From positions 1 to 23,591 of the forward strand of contig CAXHJY010001466.1 of NCBI GenBank assembly GCA_964016885.1: a stretch of DNA of 23,591 nt, in the 5' to 3' direction. The notes under the pieces are model-generated. The model saw only the letters and a program-made list of their open reading frames with translations. It was not told the DNA's origin and did no database searches. This document shows, in pieces, positions 11,438 through 23,292 of the stretch. The position numbers and the translations under genes are program-made. The DNA is from Eledone cirrhosa. Lineage: Eukaryota. Positions within the stretch are counted from its first letter, which is position 1. Each line of letters begins with the position of its first letter.

Positions 11438-11792
11438 GGCAATTGAATGAATGAATGAATGAATGAAAGAGTTACAAGCCATTAAAACATTTCTTTATAT
11501 AGCTCTTACATGTGGTTCACCCAGCTGGGGTTGGTCAAAAGTAACCCAGTGACATCCAACAGGCATCGAGTAATTACCTCTCTTAGCAAGTTATATCCCT
11601 TTCACTGGCGGCAATGCATTTCCTATCTTAGAACAGGATGCATGGGGATGTGAAGTTGTGATATCCTCTCAACGATTTGTAATTAAGGACCTAGTCATTG
11701 GAATTTCTGCCTCCGACAAGCCCTTCTGGGCGAAACACGTGTAAGAGCTATATAAAGAAATGTTTTAACAGCTTGTAACTCATTCATTTGCC
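11438..11792 (+). mobile_element. Penelope-like remnant (or MITE) with inverted termini and a degenerate hammerhead motif
   Basis: Inverted arms 11469-11514 and about 11737-11781 (GAGTTACAAGC..TAAAACATTTCTTTATATAGCTCTTACA) extend out to GGCAA...TTGCC. The motif CCGACAA-GCCC-ttct-GGGC-GAAAC-acgt-GTA lies at 11713-11743. Confidence 0.6.
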
Positions 11793-12171
11793 TATATATA
11801 TATATATATATTGAAAAAAAAGGTGGACGAAGACAACAGAAACTCAGGGCAGTCCCTTCTCATCAGTCAACCACTGGACGTCAACATGGTTTCAGTAATT
11901 AAGATCGATACCTCTAGCTCCAGTGCACATGGGGACAGTAATAAATCTACACAAGACAGGACAACTGATCTTTCAACTATTTACAAATAAAATAAGGTGG
12001 ACGAGATGTAAGCCTTATATGGACAAACACTACATGGAAGGAGCAGAGAGAGAGAGAGAGACAAAAGACAGGACGATTGGTCTTTTGACTGTTTACAAAT
12101 AAATATTTATTTCTTTGTTAATATGTTTATTTATTTGAATAAAAAGTTGGAGGTTTCATCCTATTTTCCAG

Positions 12172-12303
12172 ATGGTTGTCCAGAAAACTTCAGATTCCCT
12201 TGTTTCAATCTATTGTGTATTTCTGAGTCATTGCAATGTGATAGAATTGATCATTGTGGAGATAATTCCGATGAAAGTCCGGCCTTGGAATGTAATTATG
12301 ACA
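12172..12303 (+). CDS. Host gene exon E: LDL-receptor class A module 1
   Basis: Acceptor ctattttccag| and donor |gtaaga. Encodes DGCPENFRFPCFNLLCISESLQCDRIDHCGDNSDESPALECNYD, with 6 Cys and CGDNSDE. Phase 1-1. Confidence 0.93.
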
Positions 12304-12363
12304 GTAAGAAACAACATTATTTCCTTCATTTATTTGCCCAGAACCAGCACTATTATTATTACA

Positions 12364-12804
12364 GTGGATTGGCAGTATCGGTAGGAGGTCAGATGCCTTG
12401 CTTTGCAGCATAGAGTTACGGCCCTTGCCATTCTGAGGTTAACTTTGCCTTTCATCCTTACGGGGTTGGTGTAATAAAGTACCAGGAATACACCGAGATC
12501 AATTTAATTGACTTTCCCTTCCTCCCCAAATCGTTGTCCTTATGCTTGAATTAGAAACCATTAGGTGGATTGGCAGTATCGGTAGAGGGTCGGACGCCAT
12601 GCTTTGAAGCATAGAGTTACGGCCCTTGCCATTCTGAGTTCAAATCCCGCCAAGGTTAACTTTGCCTTTCATCCTTACGGGGGTCGATAAAATAAAGTAC
12701 CAGTAATGCACTGGGTAATTGCTGGCCTTGTGCCAAAAGTAGAAACAATTATTATTATAATTATTGGTTGGTGGATTGGCAGTAATTGGTAGAGCGTCGG
12801 ATCA
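12364..12804 (+). mobile_element. Three head-to-tail copies of a tRNA-derived SINE (Meta-domain-like): 12364-12563, 12564-12765 and head-only 12770-12804
   Basis: Each copy starts GTGGATTGGCAGTA(A)TYGGTAG. Copy 2 has a B box GAGTTCAAATCC, which is deleted in copy 1. Central domain GGTTAACTTTGCCTTTCATCCTTACGGGG..ATAAAGTACCAG, with an (ATT)n tail. Confidence 0.85.
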
Positions 12805-12982
12805 GTTCCAGGTGGTTTGATATCAAAAGGGTTTAAACCGGGGCAGTTTCAGATGGTTTGACACCAAAAGAGTTAATCAGATGTAGTAAACCTATTATTG
12901 TTGACCATCAGTAAATACTCTGCTTGTTTCCATAACATCTCATGTCTCTAAAATGTGGTTCTGTTTTGTTGTTTTTTAATAG

Positions 12983-19225: not shown

Positions 19226-19343
19226 CGTGGGAAAGTGAAAAATCGGAGAATAGACCGTTAAAACATGTTTATTGAAAATATCACCTACGTACGTTTCGCC
19301 CAGTTGGGCTTCTCAAGGGCATAAACAGTCACAAGTGTTCCTT
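19226..19343 (-). mobile_element. Penelope-like pLTR 3' fragment with a hammerhead-like motif and poly(A) signal
   Basis: Minus strand reads atgccc-TTGAGAA-GCCC-aact-GGGC-GAAAC-gtac-GTA-ggtgat, then AATAAA (plus strand TTTATT at 19268-19273). Embedded in (TA)n. Confidence 0.7.
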
Positions 19344-20827
19344 ATATATGTATATACATATATATATATACATATATATACATATATATATATATATATA
19401 CATATATATATATACATATATATACATATATATATATACATATATATACATATATATATATATATACATATATATATATATATATATATATATACATATA
19501 TATATATATATATATATATACATATACATATATATATACATATACATATATATATATATATACATATATATATATACATATATATACATATACATATATA
19601 CATATACATATATATATATACATATATATATATACATATACATATATATATATATATACATATATATATTTCTTTTATTTGCCACTATATATATATATAC
19701 ATATATATACATATACATATATATTTTATTTGCCATATATATATATATACATATACATATATATATATACATATATATATATACATATACATATATATAT
19801 ATACATATACATATATACATATACATATATACATATATATATATATACATATACATATATATATATACATATATATATATATATATATACATATACATAT
19901 ATATATATACATATACATATATATATATACATATATATATATATATATACATATACATATATATATATACATATATATATATATATATACATATACATAT
20001 ATATATATATATATACATATATACATATATATATATATATATATACATATATATATATATATATATACATATATATATATATATATATACATATATATAT
20101 ATATATATACATATACATATATACATATATACATATACATATATACATATATATATATACATATATATATATATATATACATATATATATATATATATAT
20201 ACATATATATATATATATATATACATATATATATATATATATATACATATATATATATATATATACATATATATATATACATATACATATATATATACAT
20301 ATATATACATATATATATATATATATATAATATATATATATACACATATATATATATATATACACATATATATATATATATATACATATATATATATATA
20401 CATATATATATATATATATACATATATATATATATATACATATATATATATATATATACATATATATATATATACATATATATATATATATATATATATA
20501 CACATATACATATACATATACATATATACATACATATATACATACATATATACATACACATATATATACATATATATATACATATATATATATATATACA
20601 TATACATATATATATACATATACATATATATATACATATATATATACATATACATATATATATATAGTATTAGTTATACTATTTATGGTTATGTAAACAC
20701 AAAACCTTAAGCAGTTGTAAGTATTTTACACACACCCTAAATAGTGGTAGGCAGTAATGTATTACTACCTTATTACCAGTAAGTTAAGTAGCTCAATGTA
20801 AAAACATCAGATGATTTACAGAGCAGT

Positions 20828-21154
20828 TATATGAAATATAAGAATCAAAGAACTGTTCAAAACATTATTGTGCTTACAGCTGTTTCCTCCAAACCGAGGT
20901 TTGTACCTATTAATATAAATGTAATCTCGAAGTGTGTACTGCCACTCTAAATTCTGTAATGAATGTTGACCCACAATGTTTGAATATGTATCAATGTTTG
21001 AATATGTATTGGTATGTCTCTCGGCTGAAAAGGAGGTCATATAACTGTCCATGCATTAATAAATTGCTCCGAAGAATCCAAACCTCGGTTTGGAGGAAAC
21101 AGCTGTAAGCACAATAATGTTTTGAACAGTTCTTTGATTCTTATATTTCATATA
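20828..21154 (+). mobile_element. Penelope-like remnant with a perfect 76-bp inverted terminal duplication and a hammerhead-like motif
   Basis: 20828-20903 is the exact reverse complement of 21079-21154. The motif TGCT-CCGAAGA-aTCCAAAC-ctcg-GTTTGGAg-GAAAC-agct-GTA-AGCA lies at 21065-21111. Confidence 0.7.
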
Positions 21155-22876
21155 TATATATATACATATATATATATATATACATATATATATATATATA
21201 TATATATATATATATATATACATATATATATATACATATATATATATATACATATATATATATACATATATATATATATATATATACATATATATATATA
21301 TATATACATATATATATATATATACATATATATATATATATATACATATATATATATATATATATATATACATATATATATATATATACATATATACATA
21401 TATATATATACATATATACATATACATATATATATATACATATATATATATATACATATATACATATATATATATATACATATATACATATATATATATA
21501 TACATATATATATATATATATATATATATATATATATACATATATATATATATATATATATACATATATATATATACATATATATATATACATATATATA
21601 TATACATATTTACATATACATATATATATATATACATATATACATATATATATATACATATATACATATATATATATATACATATATACATATATATATA
21701 TATACATATATACATATATATATATACATATATACATATATATATATATACATATATACATATATATATATATACATATAGATATATACATATATACATA
21801 TAGATATATACATATATACATATATATATATATACATATATACATATATATATATATACATATATACATATATATATATACATATATACATATATATATA
21901 TACATATATACATATATATATACATATATACATATATACATATATATATATACATATATACATATATATATATACATATATACATATATACATATATATA
22001 TATACATATATACACATATATATATATATATATACATATATACATATATATATATATATACATATATACATATATATACATATATACATATATATATATA
22101 CATATATACATATATATATATACATATATACATATATATATATACATATATACATATATATATATACATATATACATATATATATATACATATATACATA
22201 TATATATATACATATATACATATACATATATACATATATACATATATATATATACATATATACATATACATATATACATATACATATATACATATATACA
22301 TATATATATATACATATATATATATATATATATATATATATATATACATATATATATATACATATATATATATATACGTATATATATATATACATATATA
22401 TATATATACATATATATTTATACATATATATATATACATATATATATATATACATATATATATATATACATATATATATATATACATATATATATATATA
22501 CATATATATATATATATATATACATATATATATACATATATATATACATATATATATATACATATATATATATACATATATATATACATATATATATACA
22601 TATATATATATATACATATATATATACATATATATATATATACATATATACATATATATATATATATATATACATATATATATACATATATATATATACA
22701 TATATATATATATACATATATATATATATACATATATATATATATACATATATATATACATATATATATATACATATATATATACATATATATATATACA
22801 TATATATATATATATATACATATATATATATACATATATATATATATACACATATATATATATACATATATATATT

Positions 22877-23292
22877 AGAAAGTGAGGTTTTTTTTACAAA
22901 ATGAAAAAATAACCGAGGTGTCCTACACGAGTGGAAGTATAAAGAAAAAGGGATGAAATCGAAAATGCAACTGAAGTCTTATTTTTTTAAAAAATATATA
23001 TATTTATTTGGTTCCTTTACCGGTTTCGCAGTTCTTCTGCTTTTCAAAAGGTGAGTTGAGATGGAGGGTCTGTGCTTTTTCTCACATCTGGTTGGTCTCT
23101 AAATGTTAATTGTTTTATATGGAAAAAGTGGCTCGAAAACCAGGTTTTTCGAGAAGTAATTTGATTGGTTTGTCAATAATTATAATAAATTTCGCGCCAG
23201 TTCGCGTTACAATAGTTCTTCAAATAAGAGAGGGGGGGGTGTCACAGGTTGTTTTTTCATATATGAGTGTTTGAATTTCTTTTTACTTGAAA
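22877..23292 (-). mobile_element. Penelope-like pLTR fragment inserted in (TA)n
   Basis: A non-repetitive island containing a minimal hammerhead followed by AATAAA on the minus strand. Confidence 0.6.
23014..23051 (-). ncRNA. Minimal type I hammerhead ribozyme, U3-A8 core variant
   Basis: Minus strand reads CCUU-UUGAAAA-GCAG-aagaa-CUGC-GAAA-C-cg-G-UA/AAGG. Stem I (CCUU/AAGG) and stem II (GCAG/CUGC) are perfect, stem III is the palindrome ACCGGU, and the cleavage triplet is GUA. Confidence 0.72.

Follow-up and report, generated by a model that had tools for sequence, protein, structure and literature searches.

We examined a 23,591-nt stretch of the octopod Eledone cirrhosa (assembly GCA_964016885.1, contig CAXHJY010001466.1, positions 1 to 23,591), here called the window. 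It contains four short islands (E1 to E4) that adjoin (TA)n repeats, and each island carries one type I hammerhead motif with an altered core. E3 is a dispersed, high-copy family, and C4 is the consensus state of its core. What is new is this high-copy octopod repeat family, whose consensus hammerhead has both U4C and an A.G mismatch at the start of stem II, while the fold is otherwise conserved and covarying. The islands are likely the 3' ends of four families of Penelope-like elements (PLEs), most like those of the (TA)n-targeting Hydra clade. We consider it reasonably probable that these 3' ends carry hammerheads that would act only as dimers and cut after GUA, and that the U4C core of E3 is a conserved slow or protein-assisted ribozyme and not a decayed copy.

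The motifs were retrieved with a descriptor scan. The descriptor contained a core with up to two changes from CUGANGA, stem II, GAAA, a palindrome from A15.1 to U16.1, and H17. It was written post hoc, which makes the scan optimistic. It retrieved exactly four motifs from the window, and still four when up to three core changes were allowed. In 1,000 dinucleotide shuffles of the 9,470 non-tandem bases, the mean was 0.004 motifs and the maximum was 1; none reached 2. The earlier note had placed four hammerheads in islands abutting (TA)n, none with the canonical core, and this description stands. The count of four far exceeds that in the shuffles, positions 3, 4, or 8 deviate in 4/4 motifs, and (TA)n adjoins 4/4 islands. 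G5, A6, A9, GAAA, U16.1, and H17 are intact in all four motifs. All have GUA at the predicted cut site, and the palindrome that spans A15.1 to U16.1 is perfect in each. All have a three-way junction open at stem I (type I topology). Stem II is 4 to 7 bp long. Stem I contains 4 bp in E3 and E4 and just 2 contiguous bp in E1 and E2. The Rfam scan of the islands matched E2 to Hammerhead_1 (RF00163) with 11.6 bits and an E value of 5.3, below the gathering score of 34. The scans of the E1, E3, and E4 islands retrieved no hammerhead match. A scan of the whole window was uninformative for hammerheads, being dominated by microRNA models that match TA repeats.

The GUA triplets at 11743, 19286, 21107, and 23018 open the hexamers GTAAGA, GTAGGT, GTAAGC, and GTAAAG, which resemble 5' splice donors. 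Introns near the hammerhead are known in PLEs (PMC4209133).

E3 contains two arms. The forward arm (20904..21148, + strand) contains 165 nt upstream of the motif, the core CCGAAGA at 21069-21075 with C4 at 21070, the palindrome at 21099-21106, a predicted cut after A21107, and a 41-nt tail. The motif at 21069-21107 (+) reads CCGAAGA / A-TCCAAACC-TC-GGTTTGGA-G / ACAGCTGT-A. Stem II is long, with an A.G mismatch at the first pair that was missed in the first reading. The inverted arm (20667..20903, - strand) contains 72 nt fully complementary to 21079-21150. It is truncated inside stem II and runs ~165 nt past the tail. The two arms are 100% identical over 72 nt. The continuation past the tail appears to be part of the element, because a similar sequence follows the tail in a contig from another organism (loose end at 21140). 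The frame upstream of E3 (64 aa) has no Pfam match.

The family consensus was read from reads and contigs placed on E3 (20904-21150), which covers one of the four families. The E3 family was retrieved as 347 contigs in run X1, as 2,684 of 12.5 million restriction site-associated DNA (RAD) reads in run X11 (same species label), and as 3 contigs in run X8 (another organism). Read depth is not copy number, and the copies in the genome likely number in the thousands. Run X1 contains four places with C>T at 5% or more (21022, 21049, 21103, and 21112), none of them in the core. All C>G and G>A places of run X1 are listed, and none is in the core. C3, C4, G5, and G8 are therefore the E3 consensus. 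The earlier note had asked whether the odd cores are consensus states. For E3, the family checked with these reads and contigs, the family core is indeed CCGAAGA and not CUGAnGA. Record 9 of run X8 covers the core and has one difference, which lies outside it. Among the X11 positions listed, 13 of 24 vary at 21040-21063, versus 0 of 13 at 21064-21076, which holds stem I and the core (Fisher p 0.0009).

The center of the E3 palindrome varies. Of the depth in X1, G>A at 21102 accounts for 35% (31 contigs) and C>T at 21103 for 55% (42 contigs). The two changes occur together in 2/2 X8 contigs, as a compensatory swap that keeps the palindrome; their phase is known from X8, not from X1. The X11 reads end at reference AATT sites (20950 and 21062-65), and their depth drops also at 21101/21102. 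This suggests that the doubly changed palindrome is common, because it creates AATT where the depth drops. At least 204 of 268 X11 reads contain both palindrome changes. This count was not used as support; 217 reads come from 4 start points, with a third change.

E1 also contains two arms. The forward arm (11534..11792, + strand) is a 5'-truncated element end with a 49-nt tail past the cut site, and it terminates at (TA)n. Its hammerhead motif (11709..11748, +) contains the core CCGACAA at 11713-11719, stem II at 11720-11731, GAAA, the palindrome at 11735-11742, a predicted cut after A11743, and a weak stem I. Positions 11713-11743 (+) read CCGACAA / GCCC-TTCT-GGGC / ACACGTGT-A. The inverted arm (11256..11533, - strand) contains a second stem II-to-tail copy at 11462-11533 and a damaged core, and it runs ~190 nt further to (TA)n. 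The arms are 88% identical over 72 nt, and the differences are CpG-type. E1 had been taken for a plain U4C type. Its C4 is borne out, but U4C is not the only alteration, as the C3-A8 mismatch is a second core change. Judged from its sequence, the E1 core would most simply have arisen from a U4C core when G8 underwent a single CpG transition; the ancestor may instead have been canonical or of the U3-A8 type. The frame upstream of E1 (56 aa) has no Pfam match.

E2 and E4 both have U3-A8 cores. E2 (19227..19342, - strand) contains 116 nt within (TA)n, with the core TTGAGAA at 19316-19310, the palindrome at 19294-19287, a predicted cut after 19286, and a 59-nt tail. Its motif at 19316..19286 (-) reads TTGAGAA / GCCC-AACT-GGGC / ACGTACGT-A. 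E4 (22876..23292, - strand) contains 417 nt within (TA)n, with the core TTGAAAA at 23047-23041, the palindrome at 23024-23019, a predicted cut after 23018, and a 142-nt tail. Its motif at 23047..23018 (-) reads TTGAAAA / GCAG-AAGAA-CTGC / ACCGGT-A. The U3-A8 double change in these two islands is probably best taken as a family state.

The E2 tail contains the 11-mer TGTTTTAACGG (near 19256-19266, -), which occurs once in the PMC8557442 supplement, ~15 nt short of the Hydra-2_Amil 3' end. This hints, weakly, that the two share a terminal motif. The sequence upstream of the E4 hammerhead (-) contains a TATA-like motif (23113-23120), a CCAAT (23164-23168), and an E2F-like motif (23190-23199). They could be the promoter of the pseudo-long terminal repeat (pLTR).

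The folds suggest a dimer. The full hammerhead is not in the minimum-energy fold of any motif as a monomer. Unconstrained co-folding with a second copy of itself gave both stems II and an intermolecular stem III of 6 to 8 bp for 4/4 motifs. The dimers lie 7.5 to 11.7 kcal/mol below two monomers. Dimer cleavage of PLE hammerheads was reportedly the subject of work by Lunse et al. in 2017 (review, PMC6765202). A double-hammerhead dimer mode has been described for PLE ribozymes (PMC4209133; review, PMC6765202). In the + strand transcript of the window, the inverted arm pairs at a probability of 1.0 with 12/12 positions from G12 to the cut site in E3 and with 10/12 in E1. The E1 and E3 copies are predicted to be silent at this locus because GAAA, the palindrome, and the cut site are all taken up in pairing with the inverted arm.

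The assignment to PLEs comes from the architecture of the islands. According to Craig et al. 2021 (PMC8557442), PLE insertions are marked by 5' truncation, a neighboring truncated copy in inverted orientation, and an extension on one side. The hammerheads are followed by 41 to 142 nt up to the 3' end, which lies at (TA)n, and are preceded by 26 to 245 nt. Two of the four islands (E1 and E3) contain a back-to-back inverted, 5'-truncated copy of stem II to tail. Their one-sided extensions past the forward-arm end (~190 nt in E1 and ~165 nt in E3) are longer than the 30- to 40-nt tail given in PMC8557442. All four islands are inserted into (TA)n, a trait of PLEs of the Hydra/Neptune/Naiad type; target-site duplications are unreadable inside the repeat. 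Insertion into (TA)n is listed for nearly all Hydra-clade families (PMC8557442). One of them, Hydra-1_Obim of Octopus bimaculoides, inserts into (TA)n and has its hammerhead, a canonical one, close to the 3' end (PMC8557442). Hydra-clade hammerheads lie near the 3' end and often contain GUA, a 4-bp ACAG/CUGU stem III, and a mismatched first stem II pair (PMC8557442).

The likeness to the Hydra clade thus covers (TA)n insertion, a 3'-near hammerhead, frequent GUA, an ACAG/CUGU-type stem III, and, in many members, a mismatch at the first pair of stem II. In contrast, all rows of File S2 have a CTGA core (PMC8557442). Four motif searches specific to E1, E3, or E4 matched no hammerhead in that supplement. 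The Hydra-clade assignment is not established, as the islands have no linked reverse transcriptase (RT) or endonuclease (EN) open reading frame (ORF); members of the clade are recognized by the RT motifs RWK and DKT, an EN without CCHH, and a CxCX5C linker. The earlier note had read the islands as (TA)n-targeting Penelope-like families with a lineage-specific set of cores. The (TA)n junctions, 3'-end hammerheads, and inverted arms fit the PLE part of that reading, but "lineage-specific" does not suit U3-A8, which is known in Schistosoma Cercyon.

The same note called the islands otherwise dissimilar, which is only partly right. The stem II arms and upstream sequence of E1 recur in E2, and the tails of E1, E2, and E3 have an ATGTTTT(G)AAC motif in common, which E4 does not share. 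The tail pairs among E1, E2, and E3 beat shuffles (matched by 15, 6, and 8 of 1,000 shuffles), whereas the three tail pairs with E4 were no better than shuffles (272, 145, and 942 of 1,000). The upstream regions aligned better than shuffles in 0/6 pairs (57 to 228 of 300). A pattern of the E1/E2 type was retrieved from 29 metagenome loci and from no viral contigs. We rejected the 29 loci as unrelated or chance matches; 0/29 are near TA runs, 6/29 have the canonical CTGATGA, and none has a core of the window type.

Most of this anatomy is already known, namely, the palindromic dimer stem III, U3-A8 cores, (TA)n targeting, and, in Octopus, a Hydra-clade PLE whose hammerhead is canonical. U3-A8 is described in Schistosoma Cercyon PLEs with ~1,300 hits (Cervera and de la Pena 2014, PMC4209133), and natural U3-A8 was reported by Perreault et al. 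2011 (PMC3088659). The PLE hammerheads of PMC4209133 resemble those of the window in being of type I, with a short stem I, a palindromic stem III, a dimer fold, and many solo copies. They also occur as opposite-strand pairs 100 to 700 bp apart, and the core of S. mansoni family 4, UUGAAAA, is the E4 core. Unlike E3, 0/56 of the representatives listed there contain C4, and the descriptors used there required U4. The consensus there has G10.1-C11.1, whereas E3 has A.G at the first stem II pair. Our literature search, which did not cover the alignments of Lunse et al. 2017, yielded no report of a PLE with U4C and none of cores of this kind in cephalopods. The repeat annotation of O. vulgaris lists active PLEs and contains no occurrence of "ribozyme." The giant squid genome paper gives 235 Rfam Hammerhead_1 loci, with no detail.

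In the reading that we favor, the elements would insert by target-primed reverse transcription with 5' truncation. Two hammerheads of one tandem pLTR transcript would then pair through the palindrome, and the dimer is predicted to cut after GUA. The U3-A8 cores of E2 and E4 retain a 3-8 pair and would be ordinary working variants. The U4C core of E3 would be a conserved slow or protein-assisted ribozyme.

A number of points weigh against this reading. No remnant of a PLE ORF (RT or GIY-YIG) turned up in the islands, whose short length gives little reason to expect one, and the case for PLE membership is thus architectural. Pattern scans for the E3 family retrieved none from metagenomes, none from prokaryote genomes, and none from viral contigs. 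No E3-family record was aligned in run X5, which does not show absence. Record 9 of run X8 is a single depth-2 contig and may be carry-over. The X11 positions listed hold five of the six C>T places, and a minority U4 may still exist in X11. Two A>C places of run X1 lie outside the positions listed and could include the first stem II pair of E3. RAD reads form stacks, and the 21102 change is backed by 8 start points only. Immediately before the shared part, the inverted arm of E1 has TTGAC, a sequence that would fit a U3-A8 ancestor also. A deep mutational scan recorded low activity for hammerheads with one or two mutations in the CUGA turn, save for the 3-8 swap (PMC9901934). An Anolis PLE inserts in vitro without the need for hammerhead cleavage (PMC11167929). 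E3 could be catalytically dead.

The alternative built on these last points is a real one, although we doubt it. It holds that the U4C hammerhead of E3 (and of E1) is dead and was fixed in the source element because cutting is dispensable, with the fold left as a protein-binding or dimerizing handle or as a hitchhiker. Both the weak CUGA-turn mutants and the insertion without cleavage speak for it, as do the A.G first stem II pair of E3 and the Naiads, which thrive without canonical hammerheads. Published evidence on U4C itself cuts both ways. A viroid U4C variant had much lower activity in vitro, a considerable reduction, but its activity was sufficient in vivo (PMC3088659). The source of that statement appears, from the title of the reference, to be Ambros and Flores 1998. 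The core change is common to the viroid hammerhead and E3 (PMC3088659), whereas the viroid sequence is a variant and the change in E3 is the family consensus in a high-copy animal repeat, whose stem III forms only in dimers and whose loops make no evident contact. The Anolis PLE hammerhead depends on its protein for cleavage (PMC11167929), which counts against the dead reading. E3 also retains its other core positions, stem I, and a palindrome across subfamilies with strongly different flanks, a further point against it. A slow or protein-assisted ribozyme is somewhat more likely for E3 than a dead fold, both being putative.

The islands may instead be non-autonomous retrozyme- or SINE (short interspersed nuclear element)-like elements moved by PLE proteins, and not truncated autonomous PLEs. 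We regard this as rather unlikely. It would account for the lack of a coding remnant in the islands, for the depth of the E3 family, which peaks on the hammerhead, and for the promoter-like motifs upstream of the E4 hammerhead. Animal retrozymes have been proposed as PLE derivatives (PMC7229834). Like the islands, non-LTR retrozymes (LTR, long terminal repeat) are non-coding, hammerhead-bearing, and PLE-related, and some need dimers (PMC7229834; bioRxiv 10.64898/2026.07.22.740005). However, they are head-to-tail tandems of ~150 to 450 nt with canonical cores, whereas the islands are solo ends or inverted pairs in microsatellites. The islands contain no head-to-tail hammerhead repeats, the mark of a retrozyme. 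Their 26 to 245 nt of upstream sequence fall inside or close to the non-coding 3' region of Hydra-clade elements (~190 nt from stop to core in Hydra-2_Amil, by eye), and copies this short would not be expected to reach an ORF. The inverted truncated arms are typical of PLE insertions (PMC8557442) and again favor truncated PLE ends.

Copy-specific decay of a canonical CUGAnGA core is an improbable source of the odd cores and is plausible mainly for E1, which is old and has CpG-type differences between its arms. For E3 it is refuted by the family core CCGAAGA and by arms that are 100% identical over 72 nt. U3-A8 takes two matching changes, and these occur in two different islands and in known families.

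The earlier idea that the distinct palindromes are a selected code, limiting dimer cleavage to partners of the same family, has no support and is very unlikely: homodimer stem III helices (-8.3 to -11.1 kcal/mol) are indeed far more stable than the six cross-family pairs (-0.3 to -3.6 kcal/mol), by at least 4.7 kcal/mol over any of them, but such discrimination is physically expected for any two different palindromes, the E3 family itself holds two mutually incompatible forms, both seemingly common, that pair with each other at just -2.2 kcal/mol, in published models the two partners belong to a single tandem transcript, where a code is needless (PMC4209133; PMC6765202), and palindromes recur in unrelated elements, for example, ACCGGT in Chlamys-2_cBra (PMC8557442).

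PLE hammerheads are slow cutters, one tested element inserts uncut, and their role is still debated. The E3 family is a natural experiment in this respect. It has kept the whole fold and a covarying palindrome and has changed a near-invariant core base. Should E3 cut, animals tolerate a U4C core, and present censuses overlook such ribozymes. If it does not cut, the fold is retained for a purpose other than cutting. The U3-A8 cores, palindromic dimers, and TA targeting extend known biology to an octopod. More speculatively, and with considerable doubt, octopod PLEs may include at least two families (E3 shown and E1 inferred) with a fixed U4C that is putatively working, either tuned down or rescued by a protein. 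Compensatory palindrome steps would split their subfamilies into non-cross-reacting dimers. CUGA-based searches would miss them, and animal counts would be too low.

The host of the window is an octopod. The exon at 10513-10755 matches CUB-domain proteins of Octopus bimaculoides (82% identity) and O. sinensis (80% identity), the 2 matches among 43 candidates. Two exons of this + strand CUB/LDLa gene match Pfam Ldl_recept_a. The second LDLa exon (12985-13107) is missing in both octopus homologue models. E1 lies inside an intron of the gene in sense orientation. The homologues stop at the exon at ~14200-14295. Downstream of this exon, the last coding one that the homologues attest, a (TA)n/(TACA)n array of ~9 kb (14602..23591) contains E2, E3, and E4. 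The idea that weak cores on sense-strand copies spare the host mRNA was dropped; n is 4, and only E1 is surely intronic.

A tRNA-derived SINE-like repeat (10905-11239) adjoins E1, also at a TA run, with a sub-threshold match to Rfam tRNA (19.6 bits). Islets at 19670-19685 (16 nt) and 19725-19733 (9 nt) end in TTTGCC before (TA)n, resembling the E1 3' end, and are possibly ultra-short insertions. The window also contains a long interspersed nuclear element (LINE) at 1885-5500 (- strand), which we take to be of the RTE-like clade. It encodes Exo_endo_phos and RVT_1 in two frames, with a PHD-like finger following the RT. It sits within an 80-bp satellite, which picks up again near 5884. Two 43-nt islets in (TA)n, at 17306-17348 and 17421-17463, match the LINE end at ~1893-1930 save for small differences.

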